Shown piece after piece: positions 1 through 18,944 of a stretch of 22,434 nt of DNA. A program made the translations under genes and the position numbers. Numbering within the stretch: position 1 is the first letter of the stretch; each line of letters opens with the position of its first letter. The stretch comes from an uncultured delta proteobacterium. Its GTDB lineage: Bacteria; Myxococcota_A; Polyangia; Fen-1088. The notes beneath the pieces were generated by a model. That model was not told the origin of the DNA. It saw only the letters and a program-made list of their open reading frames with translations, and did no database searches. Where the stretch lies: NCBI GenBank assembly GCA_963796685.1, contig CAWCMR010000002.1, positions 1 to 22,434 of the forward strand, in the 5' to 3' direction.

Positions 1-331
1 CGCCACCGGCACCCACAGCCTGCGCCGCAGCATGCGGTGACTCTGCGTGGCCCGGGTCCATGGCGCCCAATATCGACATCGCGCTTCCGTACGGGGCGTG
101 CGCGCTGATACCCCCGCATGCTCGACACTCGCAAGCGTCCCTTGTGTCTGTGGACCCGGTAGCGGGCCAACGGACGCTTTCAACTGTAGCTGCGAGGGTG
201 GCACCTGGATCTGTCGCATTCGCTCTCTGGGAACAGCGCTCTGCATGCCGTGTCCCGACGCCAACGTGAGCCAGATAGACCAGTCACCCGTCAGTGACGG
301 CCCACAAAACGCAGAGGTTGCGAATCAGTGA
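1..331 (+). CDS. 3' part of a Cys-rich lipoprotein, duplicate of the 6415-7202 cassette gene; 1-bp deletion at 103/104
   Basis: Bases 1-409 match 6871-7280 except one missing A (cgc-gctgata vs cgcagctgata). Same C-terminus ...PQNAEVANQ*. Confidence 0.8.
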
Positions 332-342
332 CCGTTTCCGAC

Positions 343-413
343 GTCGAACAAGGCGTTGCACCTGACGGTCGGCCGCGGACGGCCGCCCGCAGGTGAACGC
401 CATAGCGTTGGGC
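343..413 (+). repeat. attC site (71 bp)
   Basis: R'' GTCGAAC, L'' GTTGCACCTG, central GGCCG..CGGCC stem, L' CAGGTGAAC (one unpaired base in L''), R' GTTGGGC. Confidence 0.9.
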
Positions 414-635
414 AGGCATGAATGCAAAAGGAACCCTCGCTGGAGTCTCTCAGACCGCAGACTCCTCGCGATCAGAACGGATCCGCCTCAAAAGGAGCGT
501 CCATCAATGCGAGCAATTCGACGTGTGGTACTTCTTGTGTTCGTCGTGGCATCTGCGGGTTGCGGCAGTGGCTCGCAGGTAGACAGTGGCCTTCCTGCCG
601 CCGCTAGGGACGCCAGCTCAGGGGCAGACAATTCA

Positions 636-2045
636 GGCTCTCCTGACATCTTCGTAAGGGGAAATATCGTAGGTGCGACGCACGTCGCCGACGGAGATGT
701 GGGCGGCATGAGTTTCGGGTGAGGTGGAGACGAAGTGCGCACGGGCACCTGGGGTATCGTGTGGCTTGTCTAGAACCCACAAGCCCAGGAGCCCATGCGC
801 GCAACCACCCTATTCCGAAACCTACTCCAATTTCCACATACCCGTGTCCTGGCGGTCGAATTCGATCTGCTTGGCATATTGGTGCACGTGGCGCCAACGA
901 CGACCGTTCCCTACTGCTCAGGCTGCGGATGTCGGGTCCATGACGTGTTCGATGCTCGGGCTCGGAACTGGCGGCATCTGGACGCGTGCGGGATGGAGGT
1001 TCTTCTGCGCTACACCCTGCGCAGGGTTGACTGTCCTCGGTGCGGCGTGGTCATCGAGATGGTCCCTTGGGCCGAGCCGAAGGTCGGCTTCACGCGTGAC
1101 TTCGAGGACCACGTGGCCTATCTGGCCCAACAAGCAAGCCAGACGATGGTGGCCGAAACCATGCGCATCGCGTGGCGCACCGTCGGCGCCATCATCCAGC
1201 GGGTGGTGCCGCGGCACCGAATCCTAGCCTTCTCCTCGAGGACCTCGAACACATCGGCGTCGACGAGTTGTCGTACCGGCGGCACCATGAGTACGTCACC
1301 GTCGTTGTCGACCACGTCTCGCAGCGGGTCGTCTGGGCCCACGAGGGCAAGAACGCTGCGACGCTCGGCTGCTTCTTCGACGCTCTCGGCCCGGAACGAA
1401 CCAGCAAGCTCAAGACCGTCACCATCGACATGTCCGCGGCCTACATCGACGCGGTCACCTCGCGAGCGCCACAAGCGCAGATCGTCTTCGACCGCTTCCA
1501 CGTTCAGAGACTCGTGCAGGAAGCACTCGACGAGCTCCGGCGTGCGGAGGTCCGACTCCTGGAGGACACCGACGAACGCGGGCAACTGAAGAAGACCAAG
1601 TACCTTCTGCTCAAGAATCCGTGGAACCTATCCAGGGCCGAGTCTGAGAGGCTGTCGACCCTCCCGAAGACCAATGCCCGACTCTATCGCGGCTACCTGC
1701 TCAAGATCGCCATCTGCGACATCCTCGGTCGTCGCCAGGTCAACGTCGTCAAACAGAAGCTCGAAGAATGGATCAGTTGGGCCAGGCGATCCAGACTACC
1801 TTCCTTCAAGAAGGTCGCCGCGACCATCAAGAAATACCTGGACGGCATCGTGGCCATTGTCGCCACAGGGCTCAATAACGGAAGAACCGAGGGCCTTAAT
1901 GGCAAGATCAGGGTCATCACCCGCAGGGCCTATGGCTTCCACAACGCTCAAGCCCTCATTGGCTTCATCTTCCTCTGCTGCTCAGGCGTTGTCCTTCATC
2001 CCGTCTTCAAGGTGCCCGCGCTTCCATGAAGATGTCAGGAGAGCC
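636..2045 (+). mobile_element. ISL3-family insertion sequence, copy 1 (1410 bp)
   Basis: 18-bp perfect terminal IR GGCTCTCCTGACATCTTC; 8-bp direct repeat ACAATTCA at 628-635 and 2046-2053; ISL3-type transposase inside. Confidence 0.95.
795..2029 (+). pseudogene. ISL3-family transposase, frameshifted at ~1220
   Basis: Zinc finger CSGCG...CPRCG, GVDE, TIDMS, FDRFH and EGLNGKIR motifs. One G is missing relative to copy 2 (caccga-atcc vs caccgagatcc). Confidence 0.9.
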
Positions 2046-2053
2046 ACAATTCA

Positions 2054-3463
2054 GGCTCTCCTGACATCTTCGTAAGGGGAGATCTCGTAGGTGCGACGCA
2101 CGTCGTCGACGGAGATGTGGGCGGCATGAGTTTCGGGTGAGGTGGAGACGAAGTGCGCACGGGCACCTGGGGTATCGTGTGGCTTGTCTAGAACCCACAA
2201 GCCCAGGAGCCCATGCGCGCAACCACCCTATTCCGAAACCTACTCCAATTTCCACATACCCGTGTCCTGGCGGTCGAATTCGATCTGCTTGGCATATTGG
2301 TGTACGTGGCGCCAACGACGACCGTTCCCTACTGCTCAGGCTGCGGATGTCGGGTCCATGACGTGTTCGATGCTCGGGCTCGGAACTGGCGGCATCTGGA
2401 CGCGTGCGGGATGGAGGTTCTTCTGCGCTACACCCTGCGCAGGGTTGACTGTCCTCGGTGCGGCGTGGTCATCGAGATGGTCCCTTGGGCCGAGCCGAAG
2501 GTCGGCTTCACGCGTGACTTCGAGGACCATGTGGCCTATCTGGCCCAACAAGCAAGCCAGACGATGGTGGCCGAAACCATGCGCATCGCGTGGCGCACCG
2601 TCGGCGCCATCATCCAGCGGGTGGTGCCGCGGCACCGAGATCCTAGCCTTCTCCTCGAGGACCTCGAACACATCGGCGTCGACGAGTTGTCGTACCGGCG
2701 GCACCATGAGTACGTCACCGTCGTTGTCGACCACGTCTCGCAGCGGGTCGTCTGGGCCCACGAGGGCAAGAACGCTGCGACGCTCGGCTGCTTCTTCGAC
2801 GCTCTCGGCCCGGAACGAACCAGCAAGCTCAAGACCGTCACCATCGACATGTCCGCGGCCTACATCGACGCGGTCACCTCGCGAGCGCCACAAGCGCAGA
2901 TCGTCTTCGACCGCTTCCACGTTCAGAGACTCGTGCAGGAAGCACTCGACGAGTCCGGCATGCGGAGGTCCGACTCCTGGAGGACACCGACGAACGCGGG
3001 CAACTGAAGAAGACCAAGTACCTTCTGCTCAAGAATCCGTGGAACCTATCCAGGGCCGAGTCTGAGAGGCTTTCGACCCTCCCGAAGACCAATGCCCGAC
3101 TCTATCGCGGCTACCTGCTCAAGATCGCCATCTGCGACATCCTCGGTCGTCGCCAGGTCAACGTCGTCAAACAGAAGCTCGAAGAATGGATCAGTTGGGC
3201 CAGGCGATCCAGACTACCTTCCTTCAAGAAGGTCGCCGCGACCATCAAGAAATACCTGGACGGCATCGTGGCCATTGTCGCCACAGGGCTCAATAACGGA
3301 AGAACCGAGGGCCTTAATGGCAAAATCAGGGTCATCACCCGCAGGGCCTATGGCTTCCACAACGCTCAAGCCCTCATTGGCTTCATCTTCCTCTGCTGCT
3401 CAGGCGTTGTCCTTCATCCCGTCTTCAAGGTGCCCGCGCTTCCATGAAGATGTCAGGAGAGCC
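2054..3463 (+). mobile_element. ISL3-family insertion sequence, copy 2 (1410 bp)
   Basis: Same IRs; flanked by ACAATTCA at 2046-2053 and 3464-3471. Confidence 0.95.
2213..3447 (+). pseudogene. ISL3-family transposase, frameshifted at ~2953
   Basis: Near-identical to copy 1. One C is missing (gag-tccgg vs gagctccgg). TGA overlaps the right IR. Confidence 0.9.
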
Positions 3464-3928
3464 ACAATTCAGGCGGCTCGGCCGACGCAGTCTTCGCGTC
3501 CGATGAAGCTGTCTACGACATCGACAGCCGAGCCGGTGGTCAGTCCAAGACCGACGCACCGCTGTCGCATGGCTGCGCCGATCCTGAGTCGCTTGCACGC
3601 CACGCGGCTTGTGTGTTGGCCCAGGATGAGCCGTCCTGCTTCGACAGCGGTGGATACTGGATTTGGCTGGGCTGCATGGACTGTGGTGGCACATGCGAAT
3701 GTCGTACCTTTGATGATTCTGACTGCGTCTGTACGCAAGCGAGCGACTGCTTCAACTATTGCCTGTGGAGTCCGGCCGATCCGCTGCTGACGCTGGATCT
3801 TGCAGCTTGCACAAAAATTGCCCAAGGCAGGTGCGATGCGTGGCCGGACGTGAACGGGTGGATTATGATCGACACGCCGGGCACCTGCGTGGCCAGTCCG
3901 GTCCGAGACCACTAGATTCGAGGTAGCT

Positions 3929-4033
3929 GCCCAACAAGCCGTTGCAGCGGACGCAGTCGCCGCAGGGAAATTGGAGTAACATCAACGAACCGCTCGTGCG
4001 GCGCCCGCGCCGCTGAACGGCAAGGCGTTCGGC
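3929..4033 (+). repeat. attC site (105 bp)
   Basis: R'' GCCCAAC, L'' GTTGCAGCGG / L' CCGCTGAAC, R' GTTCGGC. CTGCCCAAC is the reverse complement of GTTGGGCAG at 407, the start of this cassette. Confidence 0.9.
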
Positions 4034-4078
4034 GGACAAAGTTCGGAGACTACACGACGGTCTGGTCAGAGGTTCGGC

Positions 4079-4505
4079 CTATGGCCCGATATCCGGAACG
4101 AGCGTGCACCCAAGGCAATAGGAGAGAGCCCAGGTCAGCGGCCGCACTGCGCATGGTGGAATGCTGATGTCGCCCGAATAGTTATCGCCGCAGTCGCACT
4201 CCTCCTGTCCGTTGAGGATGCCATCGCCACAGCGATTGACTCTGCATCGGGTGCTGCATCCGCCGTAGTTCGTGTCGCTGTTCGCGGTACCGTTGTCACA
4301 CTCCTCAGCGCCGGAGATGATGCCGTCGCCGCAGTAGGGGGCTATGTTCGCGTTGTCTCCACCGCTATCGATGGAAGCCTCTTGGAGGTTGGCATCGGAG
4401 ATCGGATCCGAGGCTGCGATAAAGTCCAGCACCCCGGTCGCATCGGGCGGCAGCTCTGGGGCTGAGAAGAGGTCAGGGTTCCTAGCCTCATCCCTAGGCG
4501 TGGCT
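4079..4505 (-). pseudogene. Myxococcus cysteine-rich repeat (DUF4215-like) protein, 5'-truncated at the IS4 end
   Basis: Two CGDG-x(6)-ECD repeats (CGDGIISGAEECDNG, CGDGILNGQEECDCG). The frame stays open up to the IS boundary at 4505/4506 and no signal peptide remains. Confidence 0.75.
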
Positions 4506-5961
4506 CATAGGTAGGATCTTAATTCCTCAATGAAATCGATCACTTACTGAACGGATGTTCAAGGTAGTTGCAGAAGACACAGGAATCCTCCTACACATTC
4601 GTTTGCGAAGACAAACGCGAGGAGGTTCCCTGTGCCCAAGAGAGACATTGCCACAATCGAGGCGGAGACACTCAGCCAAAAGCTACAGCAGGTTCTCAGC
4701 GATGCCGAGGTGGAGAAGGTGGCTCGCCGGTGTGGCTTTCTTCGACGGCGCCGTGAAATCGCCCCGGCCGCGCTTCTTATAGCCTGCATCTCGGCATTGG
4801 GGGCAGGCACGGCTGCGTGGCTCGCGGACATCCTGCGCGCCTTCAACGCGTTCACCGGCAAGGCTGTTCGCTACAAGCCTTTCCACAACCAACTGAGCAA
4901 ACGGCGATTCCCCATCTTCATGCACGCCATTCTCGAACAGGCGCTCGCGAAGCTGACGGCACCTGTGCTTGAGAGTTTGCCCAAGGGCAAGCTGGCTCAG
5001 TTCTCGGAGATCCTGTGCCATGACGGCACCTCGTTTGCGCTCAAAGACACTCTGGCCAGAAAGTGGCCCGGCCGCTTCACGAAGGTGACCCCAGCGGCAG
5101 TGGAGCTCCACGTAACCATGAGCGTCTTGAGGGACAATCCCGTCGCCATTACGCTGGCCCCTGACAAGGAAAGCGAACGCCCATTCGCCCCCAAAGCGGC
5201 GTCTCTCAAAAATCGCCTGGTCCTCGAGGACCGTGGATTCGAGGATCGCGTTGTCTTTGCAGACACTCTCGACGCCGGAGGATTCTTCATCGTTCGCGGC
5301 AAAAAGAACAGCCGACCAATCATCCGAAGTGCTCGCGACAAGAATGGCAGGCGTATCCCTCGTCTCGAGGGCAAGCGACTCAAGTGGCGTGTACTGCCTC
5401 GTCATACGGTCGACCTAGAAATCGAGTGGAAGATCAACGCCCGCAGGACCTACTGTGGTCGTCTCGTTGCCATCTACATCGAAGGAAAACGCAACAAGAA
5501 GGGCTACACCTATCTGCACACGAATCTGTCGAGAGCGACCTTCACCGCTCACGAAGTAGGCAGAGTCTACAGACTCAGATGGCAGATTGAGCTCCTCTTC
5601 AAGGAATGGAAGTCCTACGCAAATCTCCACAAATTCGACACGGCCAAGTCACCCATCGCCGAGGGCCTGATCTGGGCAAGCCTGCTTGCCGCGACCATCA
5701 AACGAGCGCTCACCCACGCCGCAGAACACGCATGCGGTATTCCACTGTCCACCCAGCGCGCAGCCTGCTCTGCCAAGCATTTCCTCGACGCGATCCTGCT
5801 ATCCATCCTCGAATCTGCCGCGCAGCTCCTGTCGCATATCCGTTCTGCCTTCACTTTCCTCGCGGAAAACGCACCTCGTGCGCATCCCAAACGCGATCAG
5901 GGAATGGGGCGCCTTGCGATGGGATTACGCCATTCCGCCACCGCTTAAGTACCTACCTATG
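4506..5961 (+). mobile_element. IS4-family insertion sequence (1456 bp), no target-site duplication
   Basis: 17-bp IR CATAGGTAGGATCTTAA / TTAAGTACCTACCTATG (2 mismatches) with 5'-CAT ends; flanks ...GCGTGGCT and TACTTCGA... are unrelated. Confidence 0.88.
4632..5948 (+). CDS. IS4-family DDE transposase (438 aa)
   Basis: HDGTS, EDRGF and YRLRWQIELLFKEWKS (YREK signature) motifs; GGAGG before the GTG start. Confidence 0.92.
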   Translation: MPKRDIATIEAETLSQKLQQVLSDAEVEKVARRCGFLRRRREIAPAALLIACISALGAGTAAWLADILRAFNAFTGKAVRYKPFHNQLSKRRFPIFMHAILEQALAKLTAPVLESLPKGKLAQFSEILCHDGTSFALKDTLARKWPGRFTKVTPAAVELHVTMSVLRDNPVAITLAPDKESERPFAPKAASLKNRLVLEDRGFEDRVVFADTLDAGGFFIVRGKKNSRPIIRSARDKNGRRIPRLEGKRLKWRVLPRHTVDLEIEWKINARRTYCGRLVAIYIEGKRNKKGYTYLHTNLSRATFTAHEVGRVYRLRWQIELLFKEWKSYANLHKFDTAKSPIAEGLIWASLLAATIKRALTHAAEHACGIPLSTQRAACSAKHFLDAILLSILESAAQLLSHIRSAFTFLAENAPRAHPKRDQGMGRLAMGLRHSATA

Positions 5962-6216
5962 TACTTCGATTACCTGCCAACCATCGATTTGATTCCGGAC
6001 AGTTTCAAGTCACATGCATTCCAGATGGTGTTGCGGACTTGTCTGGACCGTATTGGGCGACACGATTGGTCGAGTTCGTCTCATCCGTTTCATGGAGCAG
6101 CCCTGGCCGGCTTTGGCGAAATTCCCTCGGCTTGCAAGTACGACTTCTCCCCGCGCACGACCGCGTCTGCCCTTCGGAATGGTGATGAGCACGAGGATCA
6201 CAGTGACGGCGCCTAA
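5962..6216 (+). pseudogene. 3' remnant of a cassette ORF, 5' end lost at the IS4 boundary
   Basis: Open frame from the IS end to a TAA lying inside the R'' box (GCCTAAC), the usual position for a cassette gene stop. Confidence 0.45.
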
Positions 6217-6315
6217 CAAGCCGTTGCAGCTGACAATCCCGCCGCAGGGACATCGGTGTAGAATCGAGACGCCGACGCGGCGGCGGGCTTGCTGCTGAAC
6301 GGCAAGGCGTTCGAC
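6211..6315 (+). repeat. attC site (105 bp)
   Basis: R'' GCCTAAC, L'' GTTGCAGC / L' GCTGAAC, inner CCCGCCGC/GCGGCGGG stem, R' GTTCGAC. Confidence 0.9.
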
Positions 6316-6384
6316 GGACGACGCCAGGTAGGGCGCTAATGACACGGCGATACGCAAGGGGACCTTGAAATTTCTACGCATCTA

Positions 6385-6400
6385 CGGCACACCACTTGCT
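6385..6400 (+). promoter_or_regulatory. Putative sigma54 (-24/-12) promoter inside a cassette
   Basis: CGGCACACCACTTGCT fits the GGCAC-N5-TTGCW consensus with GG-N10-GC spacing, just upstream of ATG6415. Confidence 0.5.
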
Positions 6401-6414
6401 ACGTTGGCTTACTT

Positions 6415-7202
6415 ATGACAAAGACCCTAGTCTTCTGCGAAAAAGCGCACTCCAAACGCGACATTGCGATCACGGTTTCGTTTGCGTCGGCGCTCTTTTT
6501 GTCGGCCTGTGGATCGTCGGGGGGAATTCGGACGGCGGCCCATGTCCAGCTGGGCAGGTCCTTCGCTATGAATCGCCGGGTTGTGGTGCTGCCGCAACAC
6601 CAGTCTGTGGATCAAGTGAGCAGGACGCTTGCTATCGAGCTGTGTGCGGTTGCCAGGGACAAACCATTTCTCGCTGTGATTACGCCCCTGAGCCGTTCTC
6701 TGCTTTCGGTGCATGTCCGATGCCCGACGCCGGCGTGGATCTGGCAGTGGACCGGGCCAATGACATCGGCATCGACGAGCAAGACGTTGGGGTCGACGGA
6801 CCGATCGTATGTCGAGGACCGTCACCCTACTATGGGCCGACGTCCGTCTTTTCAGTCCTTCCCAATGATACGCCACCGGCACCCACAGCCTGCGCCGCAG
6901 CATGCGGTGACTCTGCGTGGCCCGGGTCCATGGCGCCCAATATCGACATCGCGCTTCCGTACGGGGCGTGCGCAGCTGATACCCCCGCATGCTCGACACT
7001 CGCAAGCGTCCCTTGTGTCTGTGGACCCGGTAGCGGGCCAACGGACGCTTTCAACTGTAGCTGCGAGGGTGGCACCTGGATCTGTCGCATTCGCTCTCTG
7101 GGAACAGCGCTCTGCATGCCGTGTCCCGACGCCAACGTGAGCCAGATAGACCAGTCACCCGTCAGTGACGGCCCACAAAACGCAGAGGTTGCGAATCAGT
7201 GA
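6415..7202 (+). CDS. Cys-rich lipoprotein (~262 aa if the G6 run at 6519-6524 is G7); apparent frameshift
   Basis: The 6415 frame gives a signal peptide and lipobox (...SFASALFLSA-C-GSSGG). The 6396 frame gives the Cys-rich body (NSDGGPCPAGQ...VCGCQGQT...CSCEGGTWIC). One extra G joins the two. Confidence 0.75.
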
Positions 7203-7213
7203 CCGTTTCCGAC

Positions 7214-7284
7214 GTCGAACAAGGCGTTGCACCTGACGGTCGGCCGCGGACGGCCGCCCGCAGGTGAACGCCATAGCGTTCGGC
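7214..7284 (+). repeat. attC site (71 bp), identical to 343-409 up to GTT
   Basis: R'' GTCGAAC complements GTTCGAC at 6309; R' GTTCGGC. Confidence 0.9.
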
Positions 7285-7313
7285 AGACTCGACCACCATT
7301 TCAGGAGGATTCG

Positions 7314-7985
7314 ATGGGATTCTTTTCGCGACTCTTCGGGAAGGCAGAGAATCCGCAGACTGATGTGGCCTGGGTTCCAGTGGTCACATCGAGCTCCGAT
7401 GTACAGACCTACTTCGGGCTTCTCGATCGGATTCGCAGCAGGCAGTCTGCGCACGACTACCTTCGGATGTTGGAGTGCTGCGCACAAAGCCTTCCGTTCT
7501 TGCCTTCGCTCGTGTCCGACACCAAGAAACAGTTCGGTGAGTTTGACATCTGCTCCATCCCCGCGATCGAAGTCGGGTGTAGGTACTGGGCTGCCCTGCA
7601 AGACGGCGCGAAACTGCGACAAGTAGCTGAGGTTGTGAAGCGCGTTCCTGCCCTGAAGGAGGGCTGGGGCGACATCGTCGACGACGCCTTCGCTGACATG
7701 GCGCTCGCAGCGCAGATAGAGACCTGCATCGCGCAGAACCCTGGTCTGCTCCAGACGAAGCTGGGTAAGGCTGTCGGCGCGCCCGGCAGGGACACGTCAC
7801 GCATCGTTGCCACCCTCGAGAATCTCGGCCGCCTCGTGCGAAGGCGCGCGGGAAAGACCTCCGAGCTTCGAGTCGCAAGCAGCGAAGCCCAGTCGGGTTC
7901 CGTATCGCCCGGGCCCAGCGAAGGAGCTGCCCAACAAGGCGTTGCACCTGACGGTCGGTCGCCTGCGGCTCCCGCCCGCAGGTGA
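7314..7985 (+). CDS. Hypothetical protein (223 aa) with probable C-terminal winged-helix domain
   Basis: AGGAGG SD before ATG7314. The segment IAQNPGLLQTKLGKAVG...TSRIVATLENLGRLVRRRAGKTSEL resembles a wHTH. The ORF stops inside attC. Confidence 0.75.
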   Translation: MGFFSRLFGKAENPQTDVAWVPVVTSSSDVQTYFGLLDRIRSRQSAHDYLRMLECCAQSLPFLPSLVSDTKKQFGEFDICSIPAIEVGCRYWAALQDGAKLRQVAEVVKRVPALKEGWGDIVDDAFADMALAAQIETCIAQNPGLLQTKLGKAVGAPGRDTSRIVATLENLGRLVRRRAGKTSELRVASSEAQSGSVSPGPSEGAAQQGVAPDGRSPAAPARR

Positions 7986-8002
7986 ACGCCAAACCGTTCG
8001 AC
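7929..8002 (+). repeat. attC site (74 bp)
   Basis: R'' GCCCAAC, L'' GTTGCACCTG / L' CAGGTGAAC, R' GTTCGAC; same subfamily as the sites at 343 and 7214. Confidence 0.9.
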
Positions 8003-8369
8003 AATCATCCTGCCGTAGTTTGAGGAAACTGAGTGCTGGCGGTGAAGTGGCAGCGGCTCTTGGCAGTGGTGTCAGTTCACGGCGTGCTGGCGTTGGCGGC
8101 GAAGTTCACGTCAACAGCGGCGACTGCGCTGGCGCCGACTTGCCGCTGGCGGAAATCGTCGCGGCTTTGGTTGGACCATCTGCGCTCGGTTGGTTGATCT
8201 CACGGGCGGGCCACCGGGAGGTGCGAGGTTCATCTCTTGGCCGGCGGAAATTTGCAACCATCCGAGGCCGTTCGAGCACGACCATCGTCTCGTCGGCCGC
8301 GAAAGCACGGTGACCGAGATCGTCTTGCTGGCCGAGGGCAGCGAAGGCTTCGCAAGGCGGCTTGATGTT

Positions 8370-8432
8370 GTCGAACATGCCGATGAAGCTGACGAAGGCC
8401 TGTCAACTCTTCTGCGGCGATCGCGTAGCCGG
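8370..8432 (+). repeat. Truncated attC (left half only)
   Basis: GTCGAAC-ATGCC-GATGAAGCTGAC. TTGTCGAAC is the reverse complement of GTTCGACAA at 7996. No L'/R' follows. Confidence 0.65.
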
Positions 8433-8479
8433 GGCCGCGCGGCTTTTGAGATGAACGAAAAGCCGGTGGACCAGTAACA

Positions 8480-8764
8480 ATGCAGCAGCACTGTATGAAT
8501 ACTCTCGGACAGCTCCCACAAGGCATGCCCCCCCAACAGCTTGCAGGGCTAGTTTTCGAGTACAACCCGAGAAACCTCCCGCCCCTGGATCTCTCGAAGA
8601 TAACGCGCGATGCGCAAGGGAATGTCGAGCTTCCGAAGGACTGCTATCAGCCTCTTCCCATTCGAATCGATGGGGAGACGTACTTCGTCGAGATGCTCGC
8701 GCTTGATGCGGATGACACGGAGGAAGATCCAGACATTGACGTCGACGAACTACTCAGCGAGTGA
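8480..8764 (+). CDS. Small acidic hypothetical protein (cassette gene; true start may be ATG8451 with a 1-bp deletion at ~8471)
   Basis: 94-aa ORF with natural-looking composition and an acidic tail, ending 18 bp before the next R'' box. Confidence 0.65.
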   Translation: MQQHCMNTLGQLPQGMPPQQLAGLVFEYNPRNLPPLDLSKITRDAQGNVELPKDCYQPLPIRIDGETYFVEMLALDADDTEEDPDIDVDELLSE

Positions 8765-8782
8765 CTACTATCCGGCGATGCG

Positions 8783-8815
8783 GCCTAACAAGCCGTTGAA
8801 GCCGACCTCTCCCGC
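8783..8815 (+). repeat. Truncated attC (left half only)
   Basis: GCCTAAC-AAGCC-GTTGAAGCCGAC runs directly into the stop codon of the reverse-strand gene; no L'/R' is present. Confidence 0.65.
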
Positions 8816-9334
8816 TCAAATGCAAGGCTCCTTCACGCTGCTCTCGTCTTCATCGTCGATAACTTCAATTTCCCAAAGGTCGTTTTCGACAAGCGTGCGA
8901 ACCACGTATTCATGGCCAGGTTTCCCTCGGAAGCAGATCGTAAGCGGATCGTAGCTGACGGAAGGCCTCGCACCTCCGGCGGCGGTTCCAGCCGCCCCGG
9001 CTGCAGCGCCAATGATCGCGCCACCGAGCAATCCCACCCCGAAAGGAACAGGAATAAACATCATTTGAGACTTTTCCTTGGCTTTACTTTCAACCTTCAC
9101 GCTGTGGCGTCCTGGGAGGATCTCGTATCGACCATCGCTGACCTTGCTGCCATCGATCTGAATGATCTTCGTTCTACAATACGTGGGACTTGGCCCGTCG
9201 CTGGCGCTCAGGAGCGCTACCTCGTTGGAAGCCCGCCTTGGCCCGCTGTACATGACCGCTGCGCAGGAGATGTTCCAGAATGAAAGGCAGATTCCCCAAT
9301 ACATCAAGCTTCGCGGTCGAGAGATTCGTCGCAT
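8816..9334 (-). CDS. Hypothetical lipoprotein with Gly/Ala-rich hydrophobic segment (172 aa), antisense to the array
   Basis: Basic N-terminus, hydrophobic stretch and NIS-C lipobox-like site; LPGRHSVKV and FRGKPGHEY beta-sandwich-like motifs; glycine-zipper-like GLLGGAIIGAAAGAAG. Confidence 0.75.
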   Translation of the reverse strand: MRRISRPRSLMYWGICLSFWNISCAAVMYSGPRRASNEVALLSASDGPSPTYCRTKIIQIDGSKVSDGRYEILPGRHSVKVESKAKEKSQMMFIPVPFGVGLLGGAIIGAAAGAAGTAAGGARPSVSYDPLTICFRGKPGHEYVVRTLVENDLWEIEVIDDEDESSVKEPCI

Positions 9335-9343
9335 TTGTGCTCG

Positions 9344-9372
9344 AATCTAGACGCGATGCTCACGGGGCGCAA
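9344..9372 (-). promoter_or_regulatory. Putative sigma70 promoter for the antisense cassette gene
   Basis: Minus-strand TTGCGC-N17-TAGATT ending 9 nt before ATG9334. Confidence 0.4.
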
Positions 9373-9440
9373 GAGTTTTGATGGGGCAGGTGATTGACAA
9401 CGACGTCCTTGGCGAGGCAGATCCTACGAGCAACGAGGCT

Positions 9441-9544
9441 GTCCAACAAGCCGTTGCAGCTGTCAATCCCGCCGCAGGGAGATCGTGTAGAATCGAGGCG
9501 CCGACTCGGCGGCGGGCTTGCTGCTGAACGGCAAGGCGCTCGAC
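9441..9544 (+). repeat. attC site (104 bp) with mutated R' core (GCTCGAC)
   Basis: Close relative of attC 6211-6315; R'' GTCCAAC; GTT is replaced by GCT at 9538-9540. Confidence 0.85.
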
Positions 9545-9632
9545 CGACCGGCGATGGCTCGTCTAAGCTTGACAGCGGCAACCAGGCTCGTCGATGCTCG
9601 GGCTGAAACCATTTCAGGAGTTTGGAGGAACA

Positions 9633-9983
9633 ATGGTCAAAAAGACTTCTACTGCAAGACCGGCGATCTCAATTCGTAGCTTTCCAGGCGCTGGTACCAA
9701 GGTCTCCGCGGCGGCTGTGTGCCTGGCGGTCTTTGTTGGATGCGCGCCTACGATTGGGCAGCACTTCAGGGAACGTGCCCTCGAGAGAGTGGCGTTTGAG
9801 ACAAAATGCCCGAAGGACCAGATCGAGTTGGTGCCGCTTGACTTGCCCCTCGATCATCCGATGCGCTCTGGCGTGCACTTGGGCGTGAAGGCTTGTAGCC
9901 AGCAAGCCGTATACGTCTTCACGAATCAATTGGGTTGGGTCATGAACACGGACAGCTCGGCACCCAATCCGCCCAAGAACTGA
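9633..9983 (+). CDS. Small lipoprotein (116 aa), cassette gene
   Basis: GGAGG SD before ATG9633; lipobox LAVFVG-C; RVAFETKCP...GVKACSQQAVYV with a cysteine pair. Confidence 0.78.
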   Translation: MVKKTSTARPAISIRSFPGAGTKVSAAAVCLAVFVGCAPTIGQHFRERALERVAFETKCPKDQIELVPLDLPLDHPMRSGVHLGVKACSQQAVYVFTNQLGWVMNTDSSAPNPPKN

Positions 9984-10013
9984 GCTTGCATTCATCGTGT
10001 CGTGTCTACCGCG

Positions 10014-10107
10014 GCCCAACCAATAGGCGTTTGAGCCGTCCGCGGAAATAGCTGCGCCATGGTCTTGCAGAGTCGGCGCAGCGGACAGCCCAAACGACGT
10101 GTTGAAC
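10014..10107. repeat. Degenerate, possibly inverted attC-like palindrome (94 bp)
   Basis: GCCCAAC...CGTTTGAGCCGTCC..GCTGCGCC / GGCGCAGC GGACAGCCCAAACG...GTTGAAC. Confidence 0.5.
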
Positions 10108-10239
10108 AAAACCGCGGGTTCGAGAGGTGATCGCCTGTCCCGACGACATCAATCAGCGTCGCCGACGCGTCTTCTTGCTCCTCCGTTTTGCGGGCGAACA
10201 CCCGAATGCTGGCCGCGCGTGTGGTAGACTCTACGCATC

Positions 10240-11091
10240 GTGCGGACATCTAGCATCCGGCATTCCTCGAGAAAGCCTCCAGTTCGGCTGGGGGGTGACT
10301 GGTGTTGCCTGAGCTGGGCTCTCCTTCTCATGCCAGCTTCCATTGCCGTGGGCGCTCCGTGCGAGAATATCTCACTCGTGTTTTACGACAACATGCCTGC
10401 GAGAGCGCTCTTCGTGCAGCCCGCCGAGACACCACAGCGAGTCTCCGCTCAAATGCAGATGTCGATAGATGGCACCAGATCGATGCAAAGTCCTCATTGG
10501 GGGCTTGGCTACCGCGTTCTGCCTTCAAGCTCAGACTCCCGCAATATCACCGGCGAAGTCTACTGGCCTGTCGGGGCTGATTCACCCTCGCTGGAGAGCG
10601 ATTTCCGGCGTGACTCCTGGGGGCGGATCTCCAGAGAAATCTTGCGCAGCCTCCCGTCTCGCAACTCAGCCTCGCTGGAAACCGCGCGCAAGATCCTTGG
10701 ATGGTATGAGTACGTTCGCAACGATGACGGTCGGCTCTACGAGATCGTGTACCATTCTTCCGCCGGGCCCGATGGCGTGTGGCTGACCGACGATGACACC
10801 GTACTGAGCCGAGTGGACATCGACTACGGGTTGGACAGCGCGAGCCCGCAAGGCGCGACAATCCTATATACGCTTGGCGAGCGCGTTGCTGTCCATTTCG
10901 ACTACGACACCGGTGGTCGACTGCTCGGCGGATCCCGAGAGGGGGTCTCCGCAAGCGCCTTCGCTCTCACCAGTGGTCCGTGTGCAACAGTGCCTGAACG
11001 GCTATTCGTCTTGCTTCTAGGTCCACATGGAGGCCCGTGGCATCCCATCAATGCAGGCCGCGGCGGTGTTCGGCCAGCCAGTCCACGGTGA
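10240..11091 (+). CDS. Hypothetical exported protein with YD-like strands (start uncertain)
   Basis: 283-aa ORF with a hydrophobic N-terminal segment; FRRDSWGRI, YVRNDDGRL and FDYDTGGRL turns; GPDGVWLTDDD motif. Extended -10-like TGGTAGACT at 10222-10230. Confidence 0.6.
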   Translation: MRTSSIRHSSRKPPVRLGGDWCCLSWALLLMPASIAVGAPCENISLVFYDNMPARALFVQPAETPQRVSAQMQMSIDGTRSMQSPHWGLGYRVLPSSSDSRNITGEVYWPVGADSPSLESDFRRDSWGRISREILRSLPSRNSASLETARKILGWYEYVRNDDGRLYEIVYHSSAGPDGVWLTDDDTVLSRVDIDYGLDSASPQGATILYTLGERVAVHFDYDTGGRLLGGSREGVSASAFALTSGPCATVPERLFVLLLGPHGGPWHPINAGRGGVRPASPR

Positions 11092-11140
11092 CCAGCCCGT
11101 TCCTACCGGAACGGTTCGGCCATGCGAGAGAGTGCGCTGG

Positions 11141-11182
11141 CCCCTCACCCTAGCCCTCTCCCCGCTGCGCGGGGCGAGGGGA
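11141..11182. repeat. REP-like intergenic palindrome (CCCTCACCC...CCCTCTCCC/GGGCGAGGG type)
   Basis: Stem CCCTCTCCCCGC-TGC-GCGGGGCGAGGG (1 mismatch) preceded by CCCCTCACCC. Confidence 0.6.
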
Positions 11183-11429
11183 TCGGAGCGCGCACGTGCG
11201 TAGCGACTTCTTGAATTCTCGGCACTTTCAACCCGTTCGGTGCTCTAGAGCACACGCTGCCCGCGGCTTCGCCGCGGCTCCCTCCGCCAAGCCACGTCGC
11301 AGCCGCGTGGCTCCACGCCACGAACCGCACGCAACCGTGTCGGTGCTAGCTCGGCATGCGACCTTGGTCCAGCGCGCCGAAAGTGGAAATTCCCTGGCCT
11401 TTGTGCTCGGGCTGGCTTCTACTGCACGC

Positions 11430-12170
11430 GTGCGCTTGGGCCCCCACTGCTACGCTCTTGCTGGATTTGCCTACCTGCCTCCGTGGTCGGTCAACGCAGG
11501 CTTTGTCTGCGGCGAGCGGCTGACTTTGATTGTCGATACCGGTCCCACGGCACACGCGGCAGCTACCATTCTCGGTTACGCGCAAGCGGCACGGCCGGGC
11601 AATACCGTGCTGGCGGTCAACACCGAGCTGCACCTCGATCATCTGGCCGGCAATTCCCTTCTGCGCGACCAAGGCATCGATGTGTATGGGCATCCTTCCA
11701 TCGCGCGTACCGACGCCGATCTTCTGGCAGACGTGACCGAGTACGCGGAAAGCGTGGTCGACCGAGATAGGCGCGATGAAGCTCGATTGCCCTTTCTGGG
11801 CACGCGCATCGCGAACCCGAACAAGGTTGTGGATCGCGACCAGTCTTTGGACCTCGAAGGCGTGACCGCGGAGCTATTGTCGGTTCCCGGCCATACCACG
11901 GCGAATCTGGCGGTGTGGGTTGCTCAGGATCGTGTCCTCTACGCGGGCGATACGGTGGTCAGCGACTATCGCCCCAACCTGGCGTCGGGTACGCCGCCCG
12001 ACTGGCATCGTTGGCTAGAGTCGCTGCACCGCCTCGAGTCTCTGCATGCCGAGGTCTTGGTCCCGGGTCACGGTCGGCTCCTGCGAGGACCAGAGGTCAC
12101 CGCCGAGATCGCACGTATTCGGGCCAGTCTGCTGCGAGCGCTGTCGGACACCGAGACGACGCTTCGGTGA
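11430..12170 (+). CDS. MBL-fold metallo-hydrolase (cyclase-like subgroup)
   Basis: VDTG, NTELHLDHLAGN, PGHT, YAGD and VPGHG motifs. GTG11430 is preferred over 11196 because the upstream extension is low-complexity. Confidence 0.85.
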   Translation: MRLGPHCYALAGFAYLPPWSVNAGFVCGERLTLIVDTGPTAHAAATILGYAQAARPGNTVLAVNTELHLDHLAGNSLLRDQGIDVYGHPSIARTDADLLADVTEYAESVVDRDRRDEARLPFLGTRIANPNKVVDRDQSLDLEGVTAELLSVPGHTTANLAVWVAQDRVLYAGDTVVSDYRPNLASGTPPDWHRWLESLHRLESLHAEVLVPGHGRLLRGPEVTAEIARIRASLLRALSDTETTLR

Positions 12171-12217
12171 CACTTCTCGCGTGGTCTTGACAGTGCTCGA
12201 TTAGCCTACGTGGAGCT

Positions 12218-13090
12218 TTAGCCCTCCTCCGGCGCCACGTCGACGGAGACTTCCAGATCGTGTCGGCCGCCGCCCAGGACCACCCCGCGCAAGGGGGTTA
12301 CGTCGCCGAAATCGCGTCCCACGGCCAGGGTGATGTGCTGGTCGCCCACGAAGATGTTGTTGGTGGGATCCACGTCGACGAAACCGAAGCGCGGCGAGAA
12401 GACCGAGAGCCAGGCGTGCGAGGCATCGGCGCCGACGAGGCGAGGTTTGCCAGGCGGTGGCGTGGTGACGAGGTAGCCGCTGACATAGCGGGCGGCCAGA
12501 CCCAGGCTGCGCAGGCACGCGATCATCAGATGCGAGAAGTCCTGGCACACGCCCCGACGATTGTCGAACACTTCGTCGAGCGGGGTGGCGATGGTCGTGG
12601 CCTTGACGTCGTAGGTGAAATCGTCGTACACGCGCGCCATGAGGGAGAGACAACCGGCGAGCACCGGTTGCCCGGCGGGGAAGGCTTGCAGCGCGTAGGT
12701 GCGCAGGTGGTTCCACGGAACGATGTACGGCGAGGGGAAGGTCATTTCCAACACCCGCGGGTGGTTGCGGTCATGCGTGATTTCCTCGACCGCCGATTCC
12801 CAAGGCACATCCTGTTCGGGCAGGCCGACCGCCGGCACCGTGACCTCCACGCGACTGTGGGCCACGACCGACAGCTCCGCGTGGGGGGACGCAAGCACCA
12901 TGTGGGTCGCCCGATTGCCGAAGTAGTCCTTGCGCTCTTCGCACACGCTGGGCGCCGGCCTTGTCTCCAGCTCCGACCACAGACAGCGCTGGTGGGGCAG
13001 GTCGCGCGGCAGGAGGTGCAGGTCGTGCTGCGAGCTCGTCACCGACTCGCTGTAGCGATAGCGGGTGAGATGACGGATGCGATATCTCAC
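12218..13090 (-). CDS. Transglutaminase-like protein (Bact_transglu_N + core)
   Basis: YRIRHLTRYRY N-terminus; GVCQDFSH, ASHAW and VDPTN catalytic triad motifs; GTGA overlap with the upstream stop. Confidence 0.92.
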   Translation of the reverse strand: MRYRIRHLTRYRYSESVTSSQHDLHLLPRDLPHQRCLWSELETRPAPSVCEERKDYFGNRATHMVLASPHAELSVVAHSRVEVTVPAVGLPEQDVPWESAVEEITHDRNHPRVLEMTFPSPYIVPWNHLRTYALQAFPAGQPVLAGCLSLMARVYDDFTYDVKATTIATPLDEVFDNRRGVCQDFSHLMIACLRSLGLAARYVSGYLVTTPPPGKPRLVGADASHAWLSVFSPRFGFVDVDPTNNIFVGDQHITLAVGRDFGDVTPLRGVVLGGGRHDLEVSVDVAPEEG

Positions 13091-15624
13091 ACCGGACCTT
13101 TCGCGGGCAGGGCGCTGGCCAGGGGCCGAGCCAAGAGCGCGTGGTTGAGGTAGCCGCTGCACAACTGCTCGGAGAGCAGCGACAGATCGCTCTCGATCTC
13201 GCCCAGGATCCCGTGCAACGCGGGACGCTCGCCTTCGGAGGGCGGCAGACAGGCGGGAACCAGGTCCAGCAGTTGCAGTCGGGCCAGCGCTCCCAAGGCC
13301 AGCCGCTCTTCCGGCCGCAGTCGGGCCTGGCTGGCGTCGCGCGGAAGGTGCAGCAAGTGCTCGCGCAAGGCCACGATTTGAAAGAGCACCGAGCGTGGGT
13401 TGCTGTCGTCCACCAGCAGAAGATCCGCCACCGCGGCCGGGTGCAGGCCGGCCAGGTAGCGGCGCCGGTAGGTGATGCTGCTGTCGGCGACGGCGAGCAG
13501 GGTTTCCAGCAGCGCGCCCTCGTGCTCGGCGCCCGAGGCGAAGGCCGCGCGCAACAGCGACACCAACTGCAGGGCGCGTTCGAGGCGCCGGCCCATGTCG
13601 AGAAAGCGCCAGCCGTGGCCGCGGGTCATGCTCTCCATGGCCAAGCCCGAGAGCGCGGACAAGCTGGTGATCACCCGATCGAGGAGGGCCGTGAAGGTAC
13701 CGATGGATTGGGACGTGGCCAGTCTCTCCGCGCGCATGGCCTCGTCACCCAATCCGCCGAGCACGCGAAAGGTGTCGGCGGACAGGCGATCGCGAACCGA
13801 GGCCGCGGCCCGCAGCGCCGCACGGATGGTGTTGTGCAAGGAGCCTGCCGGATCCGACGAGCAGAGCGCACGCACCAACCAAGGAACAGGCTGCGTCTGC
13901 CCCAGCGGTTCGCTCTCGGTCTCGGTGGCCAGGACCGCGAACAAGATGGGCAAAGCGGGCGAGGTGAAAAGACGCGCGTCCCGCTCTTCGGCCAGGCGCC
14001 CGAGCAGGTGGCGGGAAAGGCGGGCCAAGAATTCGGCACGCTCGGCATAGCGGCCGAGCCAAAACAGGTTGTCGGCGCTGCGGCTGGGCAGGTCGGCCCC
14101 CTCGCGCGATAGCTCGACCGGCCGGGTGGCGGGCGGCAGCAGACTGAAATTCACGACCGGACGCTCGCTGCGCACCCACAGGTCCTTGGCCAGGGCTCCC
14201 GCCGCGATGGCGATGAAGGGATCCTTGTCGCTGGACGAGACCAGGGACAGTCCGCCCGGCATGACCTGGTAGTCGTCCCCGAAAAGCACGGCATAGCCCC
14301 GCAGCAGGGAGGCGCGCGAGGAAAGCTCCACACCGGAAAGCACGGGGGCGTGGGCGGGTTCGACCTTCTCCTGGGCCACGAACTGCTCGGGATGGGCGTG
14401 CAAATCGCGCAGAAAGGTTTCCCGGCTCTCGCCCGTCAGCTCTTCGCCGACGACCAGCCCCGAGCCTGCGCCCGACCAGGCGGGCCTGACGACCATCTTG
14501 TCGAGACTGGCTTCCACGTGCGCAAGGGACGCGGCGTCGCCACACCAAAACGAGGGGGGGCTGTCGAGCAGAAGCTCTTCGCCGAAGAAGGTGCGCGCCA
14601 GGGCCGGCAGGAACGCCAGGAACGCGGGCGACTGCGCCAGCCCCGTGCCGAGCGCGTTGGCCACCGCCACCTGACCGGCGCGCACGGCCTCGACCAGGCC
14701 GGGCACGCCCAGGCGGGAATCGGGACGCAGCTCGAGCGGATCGCAGTAGTCGTCTTCGGGATGGCGGAAGATCACGTCGACGGGAAAGAGCCCGCCCAGG
14801 GTCTTCAGGAACACGCGACGATCGCGGACGGTCAGGTCTCCACCCTCGACCAGGGGATAGCCGAGGTACTGCGCCAAAAAGGCTTGCTCGAAATAGGTCG
14901 GGCTCCATGCGCCCGAGCTCTGCAAGACCACGCGCGGATGCTCGCGGGGCATGGGTGCAAGAGATGCTAGGGTCTCGCGCAAGGTGCGAAAGAACGGCGC
15001 CAGCCGGTGCACGTTGCTTTGCCGGAACGGCTCCTCGAATACCTGGGACATGACCAGGCGGTTTTCCAGCGCATAGCCCGCGCCGGTGGGCGCCTGCGTG
15101 CGATCGCGCAAAACACAGAATCCGCCCGAGGATGTGCGCACGACATCCGCGGCGTACAGGTGCAGACGGTGGCGAAGGTCGAGACCATGGCAGGGCCGCA
15201 GAAAGCCCGGGTTGCCCAGCACCAGCCGCGTGGGCAGAAATCCGTCGCGCAGAAGTTGCTGGGGACCGTAGAGATCGGCCAGCACCTTGTCGAGCAGCCG
15301 CGCGCGCTGGGCCAGGCCCGCTTCGAGCTTCGCGAATTCTTCGGGCGCCAGCAGCGAGGGGATCGCATCCAGGCACCAGGGACGCTCGCCCGCCTGCGCG
15401 TCGCCGGGCACGCTGTAGGTGACGCCGTGGTCGCGCACGAGCTGGCGTACCTGTTCGGCCCGTTGGCGAAGGCCGGAGGCGCCGAGGCCGTCCAGGAACG
15501 TGGTCAAGGGCCCCACCGCTGCGCGCGGCCTGCCGGCCTGGTCCACGAATTCGTCCCACGGGCCAAGGGCGGGCCGATAGCGCTGTTCGAAGCTGGGAAG
15601 TGGCGACGGCGTGGTTTCTTGCAT
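13087..15624 (-). CDS. Circularly permuted type 2 ATP-grasp protein fused to an alpha-E domain (845 aa)
   Basis: DRTQAPTGAGYALENR, YFEQAFLAQYLG, DPLELRPDSRLGVPGL and MPGGL motifs, then NLFWLGRYAERAE and FLDMGRRLERA alpha-E motifs. Confidence 0.92.
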   Translation of the reverse strand: MQETTPSPLPSFEQRYRPALGPWDEFVDQAGRPRAAVGPLTTFLDGLGASGLRQRAEQVRQLVRDHGVTYSVPGDAQAGERPWCLDAIPSLLAPEEFAKLEAGLAQRARLLDKVLADLYGPQQLLRDGFLPTRLVLGNPGFLRPCHGLDLRHRLHLYAADVVRTSSGGFCVLRDRTQAPTGAGYALENRLVMSQVFEEPFRQSNVHRLAPFFRTLRETLASLAPMPREHPRVVLQSSGAWSPTYFEQAFLAQYLGYPLVEGGDLTVRDRRVFLKTLGGLFPVDVIFRHPEDDYCDPLELRPDSRLGVPGLVEAVRAGQVAVANALGTGLAQSPAFLAFLPALARTFFGEELLLDSPPSFWCGDAASLAHVEASLDKMVVRPAWSGAGSGLVVGEELTGESRETFLRDLHAHPEQFVAQEKVEPAHAPVLSGVELSSRASLLRGYAVLFGDDYQVMPGGLSLVSSSDKDPFIAIAAGALAKDLWVRSERPVVNFSLLPPATRPVELSREGADLPSRSADNLFWLGRYAERAEFLARLSRHLLGRLAEERDARLFTSPALPILFAVLATETESEPLGQTQPVPWLVRALCSSDPAGSLHNTIRAALRAAASVRDRLSADTFRVLGGLGDEAMRAERLATSQSIGTFTALLDRVITSLSALSGLAMESMTRGHGWRFLDMGRRLERALQLVSLLRAAFASGAEHEGALLETLLAVADSSITYRRRYLAGLHPAAVADLLLVDDSNPRSVLFQIVALREHLLHLPRDASQARLRPEERLALGALARLQLLDLVPACLPPSEGERPALHGILGEIESDLSLLSEQLCSGYLNHALLARPLASALPAKGPV

Positions 15625-15644
15625 GGAGGCTGAGAGAGACTAGC

Positions 15645-18600: not shown

Positions 18601-18944
18601 TACGGCCGCAGCTCGCGGTGCAGATCGGGCTCGTAGCGCAGCGGGAGTCTTTCGGCCGATTCCTCGAGGAAGAAATCGAATGGGTTGATGGCGACGAGAT
18701 CCGCGACCAGATCCACGGTGATGTCGATGCGGGTGGCGGGCTCGGTGAACACCAGTCGTGCCTGGAAATTGCCGAACGGATCTTGCTGCCAGTTCAGGAA
18801 ATGGCTGTCGGGCGCCACCAGCAAGGAGTACGACTCGATGAAGGTCCGGGTGTGGGGAGCCGGTCGCAAGCGCACCACGTGCGGAGAAAGAGAAACCGGC
18901 CGGTCGTAGCCATAGTGGGTGGAGTGGTGCAGGGAGACGCGCAC
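15645..18944 (-). CDS. Transglutaminase domain + DUF2126 (putative amidoligase) protein (1099 aa)
   Basis: GSCRDFAW, DLHAWTEV and GLDATSG triad motifs; MGGEPTFVS, GKWYPGE, TPDPGVLEVN, GTGGGNHITLGG and GNTHRAEFCIDK motifs typical of DUF2126. Confidence 0.92.
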   Translation of the reverse strand: MRVSLHHSTHYGYDRPVSLSPHVVRLRPAPHTRTFIESYSLLVAPDSHFLNWQQDPFGNFQARLVFTEPATRIDITVDLVADLVAINPFDFFLEESAERLPLRYEPDLHRELRPYLDPVPVEARLANLVELCRTSYARDGRRTMDVLVDINQHIQRLLKYDIRMEPGVFSPEKTLTLGHGSCRDFAWLQCQVLRHLGFATRFASGYSIQLKPDEKPVQGPAGVAQDVADLHAWTEVFLPGAGWIGLDATSGLMAGEGHIPLACTPEPGSAAPVTGSYSWQKRSDDDKVEETFSFTMSVARVAEAPRSTKPYSEEVWSKIDGVGHDVDRVLEAEDVRLSMGGEPTFVSSDEPDASEWNTAAVGGSKFRLADTLARRLRYQFAPGGVLHHGQGKWYPGEVLPRWSIGCYYRTDGVPIWDNADLLTPESGQHQPLGGHEAEVFVAELAKRLGVETKHLLPGHEDVFYYLWRERTLPVNVDPRDSRLESELERKRLARLFERGLGAVVGYALPLVRDAEAGWRSGPWHLRREHLFLLPGDSPMGLRLPLDSLPWVAPDEREVVADPDPLAERPTLPARVLLQAAPSTLEKGGEVPPDKGASATGLARTALCVEPRQGVLNVFLPPLTTLEAYLELVSAVEGTAEALAQPVRLEGYPPLSDPRLMKFELTPDPGVLEVNVQPTTSWRSLGELTTVLYEHARQVGLATEKFDLDGRHSGTGGGNHITLGGRTPADSPLLRRPDLLRSLLGYWNNHPSLSYLFSSAFIGPTSQAPRVDEARQDALAELELAFRQVEPGKACAPWLVDRLFRHLLIDVTGNTHRAEFCIDKLYNPEVASGRQGILELRNFEMPPHARMSLAQQLLVRALVAMVWRTPYRHRLVRWGTALHDRFMLPHFVREDLHDVVADLVTAGFGFEEDWFRPHFEFRFPFIGRVQVRSIEVELRRALEPWHVLGEQGAAGGTARYVDSSLERLQVQARNLTDGRHVILCNGRPLPMTSTGTPGEFVAGVRFRAWQPPECLHPNIGVHAPLVFDVFDTWSGRAVGGCTYHVSHPGGLSFDTRPSNALVAESRRKARFQPFGHRPGPGSVKEESPHPLFPLTLDLRR

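Follow-up and report, generated by a model that had tools for sequence, protein, structure and literature searches.

The window analysed here is an entire contig of 22,434 bases (CAWCMR010000002.1) from an uncultured delta proteobacterium. Its first 10,107 positions carry a series of attC sites, the sites that close integron cassettes, with the genes that lie between them; the left end of the contig falls inside this array. The G+C content is 57-62% in 1-10107 and 65-70% in the remainder, 10108-22434, which is a chromosomal flank recognized by this composition, by its Pfam domains and by its identity to a locus of a related genome (L022). The array contains predicted lipoprotein genes, insertion sequences (IS), a winged-helix protein and several small open reading frames (ORFs), which are described below after the attC sites themselves.

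The attC sites

Between positions 343 and 9544, six sites, all on the + strand, are matched by a covariance model called R1, with scores of 56-122 bits and E values from 1.6e-13 to 4.7e-32. As the first-pass annotation of this DNA had proposed, they fall into two length classes. The long sites occupy 3929-4033 (105 nt, 122 bits, E 4.7e-32), 6211-6315 (105 nt, 101.5 bits) and 9441-9544 (104 nt, 93.4 bits), and the short ones 343-413 (71 nt, 61.8 bits, E 3.3e-15), 7214-7284 (71 nt, 64.4 bits) and 7929-8002 (74 nt, 55.8 bits, E 1.6e-13). When opposite-strand shadows and the hairpin at 10014-10107 are set aside, the next-best R1 match in the window reaches 12.2 bits (E 0.26). Exact matches to the 5' motif AACAAGSCGTTGMASC number seven in the window, all on the + strand, for 0.09 expected.

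The repeat units open with ..AAC and close with GTT.., and their arms are complementary. The inverted core triplets AAC (R'') and GTT (R') are present in five of the six model-matched sites; the sixth, 9441-9544, has GCT at 9538-9540 as its R' core. Two single-base bulges are found in every one of the six. Folding of the bottom strand with these bulges gives z values of -2.8 to -6.6 in five sites (-5.0 for 343-413 and -6.6 for 7214-7284) and -1.7 for 9441-9544. The proximal bulged base, beside the AAC of the L box, is G on the top strand and C on the bottom strand in all six window sites and in 29/29 aligned sites, in a survey that used the loci of alignment A1 (L021, L028, L030, L040, L072 and L080).

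Two further elements complete the series. The seventh motif match, at 8783-8808 (+), is the 5' half of an attC site (R'' and L''), for which no 3' partner was found and which shows no fold (z 0.3). At the end of the array, 10014-10107 is a divergent attC-like hairpin with the R-box consensus at both ends (z -3.5). It is the sole strict RYYYAAC...GTTRRRY pair within the window, it forms a strong hairpin whose stem has no bulged bases, and no relative of it occurs among the fetched loci described below; it constitutes a separate sequence family. Its orientation is ambiguous, because R1 scores it higher on the - strand (26.3 bits) than on the + strand (9.6 bits). The count of about nine sites given earlier therefore becomes eight (6 + 1 + 1), and real attC sites are among them.

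An attC model built from a related genome

R1 rests on an alignment of 29 attC sites, all from one related metagenome-assembled genome (MAG), with zero window sequence. In the alignment of these sites, 95.6% of cells are paired and 12 pairs have changed on both sides; none of 500 shuffles reached these values, and slid controls paired 25-49%. In helix 2, the L''/L' stem, 9 of 15 pairs have changed on both sides and 99.8% are paired, so that this stem is held by structure and not by sequence. The short and long classes of the window differ in the L''/L' stem by the same base-pair swaps as the relative's sites, and both length classes are also mixed in the relative's array.

Genomes were scanned with the 5' motif, one genome per species. 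At least 130 stretches were found and 129 loci were fetched, with flanking DNA taken for 80 of them. R1 matches many sites in 29 loci labelled Myxococcota or delta-proteobacterium, which had been chosen by that label. The related MAG has attC sites with up to 99% identity to 3929-4033, and the adjoining cassettes differ. Among the matches listed, the near-identical sites come mostly from MAGs labelled delta proteobacterium or Myxococcales, plus one labelled Planctomycetota. The latter (L101) has an attC site that matches window 6204-6312 with 89% identity over 110 nt, which could reflect either incorrect binning or the sharing of cassettes between phyla. The 5' motif itself is present in MAGs of many phyla among the matches listed.

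The related MAG encodes an integron integrase. On its contig 15, the gene at 8071-9114 of locus L028 scores 450.7 bits against TIGR02249, for a cut-off of 265. Sixteen attC sites follow it within that locus, and further matching sites lie on the same contig more than 30 kb downstream. The intI gene points in the same direction as the cassettes (L028, L030). Overall, IntI homologues were present in 19 of the 129 fetched loci, corresponding to 16 contigs. As a separate observation, the array of contig 15 repeats whole cassettes, including two ORFs of 213 aa and two PIN ORFs.

A duplicated cassette

Positions 1-409 (+) hold the 3' part of a cassette that is a second copy of the cassette at 6310-7278. 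The segment equals 6871-7280 except for a 1-nt indel after position 103, their sole difference, and divergence begins at the first base past GTT. G|TT has been described as the joining point of cassettes by integron integrases (PMC2727003), and an identity that ends at GTT indicates recombination at the level of the cassette.

Lipoprotein cassettes

With cassette boundaries set at G|TT, predicted lipoprotein genes are found in three of the seven distinct cassettes. Lipoboxes were called with a PROSITE-like rule together with conservation in homologues, and the genes starting at 507, 6415 and 9633, already singled out in the first-pass annotation, encode proteins with a basic N terminus, a hydrophobic stretch and a conserved lipobox cysteine. 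The weaker lipobox suggested earlier at 9334 was not retained, as the - strand ORF there fails the rule on inspection by eye.

In the first of these cassettes (408-4027), the gene on the + strand consists of two pieces, 507-635 and 3472-3915, split by a pair of ISL3-family elements. Its lipobox is VASAGC, the mature part is Cys-rich, and both pieces are in frame, as read by eye and from their translations. Intact homologues are represented by P0047 (175 aa, starting with MRAIRR, lipobox ALASC) and P0048. The cassette at 6310-7278 carries a modular Cys-rich lipoprotein gene (6415-7202, +; lipobox LSAC) in which one nucleotide is missing from the G5A2 run at 6520-6526, so that the mature part continues in the ORF 6396-7202 frame. 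Its intact form, P0001, has 262 aa and occurs on other contigs, the largest of them 325 kb. The family comprises 40 homologues in which two Cys-rich modules are repeated and recombined, and most of those that retain the N terminus show a lipobox in an alignment read by eye. A structure model of P0001 computed from 39 sequences (mean pLDDT 52.0, pTM 0.31) was too poor for a fold search, and a search of PDB sequences with the profile of its family gave no match. The two Cys-rich lipoproteins are unrelated to each other (E 0.53).

The third lipoprotein cassette (9539-10101) encodes a small protein at 9633-9983 (+) with the lipobox VFVGC; P0050 is the window's own protein, taken from 9594-9983, and its record places it on a contig of 22,434 bases, which shows that the window is a complete contig. 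In alignment A4, the lipobox cysteine is kept in five of six database homologues, P0044 being the one without it, and in a cassette ORF of locus L023, which follows an attC site in another Myxococcales MAG. A PDB sequence search with 9633-9983 returned noise only (E 0.85).

Other cassettes

The cassette at 4028-6309 combines an ORF on the reverse strand with an IS4-like element. The ORF (4079-4432, -) matches the Cys-rich acidic repeat models TIGR02232 (6.5e-10) and DUF4215 (4.8e-08), as expected from its earlier description as a Myxococcus Cys-rich repeat protein. It has no signal peptide and abuts the IS4-like element, and it may be truncated. Between that element and the next attC site, 5962-6216 contains the end of a short + strand ORF with its stop codon inside the R'' box. 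Two units may have fused in this cassette, or it may contain a truncated second gene.

The cassette at 7279-7996 encodes a cytoplasmic winged-helix protein (7314-7985, +), as judged from homologue clusters and a structure model. The model predicts a helical domain and a C-terminal winged helix, with a pLDDT of 97-98 over residues 30-190; the disordered tail and the stop codon fall within the next attC site. The family to which it belongs is unnamed, spans about 160 residues and comprises 297 representative clusters. Foldseek found weak matches to ArsR/MarR winged helices over about 57 residues (best E 0.016). Among 50 members scanned, fusions to DnaJ (8), RNase_T (3), HIRAN (2) and VRR-NUC (1) domains were found, and these domains hint at a nucleic-acid-related role for the family.

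The cassette at 7997-9538, delimited by its attC boundaries, contains two small adjacent ORFs (8190-8477 and 8480-8764, +), the half attC site and an ORF on the reverse strand. The two small ORFs (8190-8764) had no match in Pfam, NCBIfam, PADLOC or PDB, and their Atlas scores were below 0.85. The reverse ORF (8816-9334, -) apparently encodes a membrane protein, to judge by eye from a glycine-rich hydrophobic segment. For this ORF and 8480-8764, Atlas gave leads only, with no common family at >=0.85.

A PADLOC run on 10 proteins returned nothing. More generally, no resistance, toxin-antitoxin or defence families were found in the cassette ORFs scanned, in agreement with the earlier remark that resistance and toxin-antitoxin genes are not recognizable. 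Comparison of the cassette proteins with the 129 fetched loci yielded a short match to the DUF4215 repeat and a weak match for the 9633 gene, all other matches being translated attC sequence.

Insertion sequences and signs of decay

Two tandem ISL3-family elements occupy 628-3471 (+; copies at 636-2045 and 2054-3463). They possess the domains (Pfam Zn_ribbon_ISL3, HTH_Tnp_ISL3 and DDE_Tnp_ISL3), the terminal inverted repeats and the 8-bp target duplication that define this family. The 8-bp sequence ACAATTCA is found three times: before, between and after the head-to-tail copies. Eight substitutions and 2 indels separate the copies, the transposase gene of each being interrupted by a different frameshift (at 1221 and 2954), and the arrangement could be a tandem IS dimer or an effect of assembly. 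Compared with plasmids, the element gave matches of 69-72% to actinobacterial ISL3 transposases and nothing else. The IS4-like element (4506-5961, +) encodes a transposase at 4632-5948 (DDE_Tnp_1, 3e-21) and is bounded by 17-nt terminal inverted repeats at 4506-4522 and 5945-5961.

These three IS copies, the half attC site and the mutated R' core are signs of decay, to which frameshifts are added: three in cassette or IS genes (1221, 2954 and 6520-6526) and one in the duplicate copy at 1-409. All four lie within repeated DNA, in the two IS copies or in the family of the duplicated cassette, while in the flank the long ORFs, of 845, 1099 and 484 aa, show no break. Either relaxed selection, the cassettes being silent, or faulty assembly of repeats would fit this pattern. 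Contrary to the initial description of single-gene units, some units are not intact single genes: the gene at 507 is split by the ISL3 pair, that at 6415 and the copy at 1-409 are frameshifted, the cassette at 4028-6309 contains the IS4-like element, and two genes lie on the - strand.

Chromosomal flank and host

The flank begins with a variable part (10240-12170) that contains an ORF of unknown function and, by Pfam, a protein of the metallo-beta-lactamase (MBL) fold. The latter (11196-12170) lies about 1 kb beyond the last attC-like site. It reaches 57 bits with the model of subclass B1 beta-lactamases, whose cut-off is 200, and is also far below the cut-offs of the other class B models. As no attC site follows the gene and the scores are below the class B cut-offs, it is considered neither a cassette nor a called beta-lactamase. 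From 12218 on, Pfam identifies conserved genes for transglutaminase, circularly permuted ATP-grasp, Alpha-E and DUF2126 proteins. In this block (12218-22434), the transglutaminase-like, circularly permuted ATP-grasp and Alpha-E genes form two sets, accompanied by a DUF2126 protein of 1099 aa, with genes on opposite strands; the block is kept in the related MAG up to 18994. No tRNA was found in the window, and a scan of it at Rfam gathering thresholds gave no RNA family and no attC hit.

Among the matches listed, the closest genome is the related MAG, labelled 'uncultured delta proteobacterium', whose contig 18 is 85.7% identical to window 12236-18994 (6.8 kb; L021/L022). This label, the attC kin in MAGs labelled delta proteobacterium or Myxococcales, and the R1 matches in loci labelled Myxococcota support a myxobacterium-like host, in line with the probable myxobacterium of the first-pass annotation.

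Interpretation of the array

The attC architecture, the covariation in the relative's sites, the duplicated cassette and the kinship of the sites to those of an IntI-encoding genome are direct observations. Taken together, they argue that 1-10107 belongs to a chromosomal integron cassette array, of which it forms the distal part, and that the host is an uncultured myxobacterium-like bacterium, a reading to which we assign a probability of roughly 0.9. That an integron cassette array is present had been suggested from the sequence at the outset, and the matches to the lineage's covariance model and the cassette duplicate ending at GTT bear this out. In such an array, each unit closes with an attC site. 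The bottom strand of the site, here the - strand of the window, folds into a hairpin made up of an R-box stem, a spacer that is unpaired, an L-box stem in which two bases are bulged, and a variable loop. IntI recognizes this folded strand, cuts at the R' core (G|TT on the top strand), excises cassettes as circles and re-inserts them. The genes of the array are probably a mostly silent stock rather than a working set of surface proteins.

Several points weigh against this interpretation. No intI, attI or cassette promoter (Pc) has been seen for the genome of the window, whose contig ends inside the array on the left. The R1 model derives from one lineage. The site at 9441-9544 has GCT in place of GTT and folds weakly. 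Some of the frameshifts may be assembly errors in repeats, in which case the array is healthier than described here. Finally, the textbook VCR and aadA7 sites have G as the proximal bulged base of the bottom strand, and the window sites have C. A G-to-C change of the VCR bulge has been reported to have minor effects (PMC2727003).

The location of the integrase has some bearing on how the array should be classified. A tblastn search of the window with two IntI proteins gave no significant match (best E 0.34), and no integrase family was found among the window ORFs scanned. The search for intI and attI beside the array, proposed in the first-pass annotation, was thus negative for intI in the window, and the left side is off the contig. 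Clusters of attC sites lacking an integron integrase (CALIN) were defined in the IntegronFinder paper (PMC4889954). The window contains 6-8 sites, and over the 12.3 kb to their right there is no intI; what lies to their left is beyond the contig. The matching neighbourhood of the relative (L021) consists of the trigger factor gene and other genes, a hicAB cassette on the reverse strand, two attC sites, an ORF and a degenerate attC site. HicA is clear and HicB falls just below the Pfam cut-off, and the ORF, which lies between attC sites, begins with a hydrophobic segment resembling a signal peptide by eye. This neighbourhood has three attC sites only and no IntI within 10 kb, and it corresponds to the definition of a CALIN. 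On this ground, we lean towards a cluster served in trans for the window as well, and its genome presumably carries an integron integrase. The routes that lead to CALIN include insertion of cassettes at secondary genomic sites, as described in PMC4889954 and in a preprint (bioRxiv 10.1101/2022.09.11.507474).

Alternative readings

About as likely is that the array is the tail of a complete integron. It would then be the far end of a single large sedentary chromosomal integron, with intI, attI and Pc past the left end and the assembly broken in a repeated cassette; this reading is a serious contender, put somewhat short of even odds. It agrees with the position of the contig start, inside a duplicated cassette, with the homogeneity of the attC sites, which resembles that of large chromosomal integrons, and with the relative's integrase, which is followed by an array with matching sites over more than 30 kb. 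That large integron is on another contig of the relative, however, and the neighbourhood that matches the window has the three attC sites without a nearby IntI.

A second proposal concerns what the cassettes do. They might constitute a working, shuffled repertoire of disulfide-rich surface lipoproteins serving receptor variation, adhesion, or the recognition of kin or prey. The conserved lipoboxes in three of the seven distinct cassettes and the modular 6415 family, with two Cys-rich modules recombined among its 40 homologues, are compatible with this idea. In the relative's main array, 21 cassettes were sampled, of which 7 are about 200 bp long and empty, and a lipobox was found in 3 of 14 ORFs of at least 50 aa. 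Cassette proteins have moreover been reported to be enriched in signal peptides in general (16.1% vs 6.8%; PMC10661359). On the other side, two of the three lipoprotein genes are broken, and the remaining cassettes are cytoplasmic or of unknown function. The claim that the array is stocked mainly with lipoproteins is not supported: these account for three of the seven distinct cassettes, with two of their genes broken, and another cassette encodes a cytoplasmic protein. Nor are lipobox ORFs a general feature of related arrays, since in 66 cassettes from 23 related sources the lipobox rule picked out 6 on the forward strand against 4 on the reverse strand used as control. Given these counts and the enrichment in signal peptides already known for cassettes, a lipoprotein enrichment here is suggestive at best. 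A promoter and terminator scan of 1-12300 remained at chance level, with 2 promoter sites for 2.9 expected, and family searches gave no function for any of the three lipoprotein families. The signs of decay (IS insertions, frameshifts, half attC site and GCT core) also weaken the case for a working repertoire, which we regard as unlikely; the contig carries no intI, attI or Pc. The broader proposition that the arrays of this lineage are enriched in lineage-specific, modular, disulfide-rich lipoproteins, shuffled by the integrase as a variable surface repertoire for social or predatory interactions, is similarly doubtful. If it were true, such a repertoire would be exemplified most clearly by the 6415 family, in which two Cys-rich modules recombine.

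Lastly, the repeats might belong to another palindromic type, of the repetitive extragenic palindromic (REP) or miniature inverted-repeat transposable element (MITE) kind, and the units be ordinary chromosomal genes, as the contig lacks an integrase and palindromic repeats are common in GC-rich genomes, but this very improbable reading was rejected on account of the single orientation of all sites, the AAC/GTT core, the stem covariation, the conserved bulges, the presence of the same repeat family after a TIGR02249 integrase in the relative, and the duplicate that stops at GTT.

Comparison with known systems

Some of the gene content recalls the Cys-rich acidic repeat proteins of Myxococcus (TIGR02232, DUF4215). 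The repeat is present in ORF 4079-4432, and a neighbour of the relative's array has the related NF033662 repeat. The window ORF differs in being short, on the reverse strand of its cassette and devoid of a signal peptide, and the three lipoprotein families of the window do not match these models.

Class 1 mobile integrons share the logic of the attC sites, and the same recombination chemistry would be expected. In contrast to them, the window is chromosomal, its attC sites are homogeneous rather than diverse, and it lacks resistance genes as well as any Tn402 or plasmid context.

The resemblance to sedentary chromosomal integrons, such as the superintegron of Vibrio cholerae, is closer. It extends to the chromosomal location, the similarity of the attC sites, the duplicated cassettes, the predominance of genes of unknown function and, in the relative, toxin-antitoxin cassettes on the reverse strand (hicAB, PIN). 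The differences are that no toxin-antitoxin cassette was recognized in the window, that the host is myxobacterium-like, that the relative's intI has the same direction as the cassettes, and that the proximal bulged base is C and not G. Sedentary integrons have been delimited by more than 19 attC sites or by presence in all genomes of a species (PMC4889954); eight sites are visible on the contig of the window.

[quoted passage not shown] It differs in that the absence of intI is established to the right only, as the contig ends on the left, and in that its eight sites exceed the number in most CALIN, 83% of which are reported to have fewer than six (PMC4889954).

In the literature searched, integrons of Myxococcota are mentioned in passing only. 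One report relates that bacterial attC sites from Myxococcota match archaeal ones (PMC9668308), and a passage of another states that IntegronFinder detected no cassettes in cultured Myxococcaceae (PMC13616975). The array described here extends the record of documented cassette arrays by one from a myxobacterium-like genome, and it yields three uncharacterized lipoprotein families and one winged-helix family that are open to expression and testing. It leaves the understanding of integrons unchanged and is an ordinary new example of a known element, a chromosomal integron array or CALIN.

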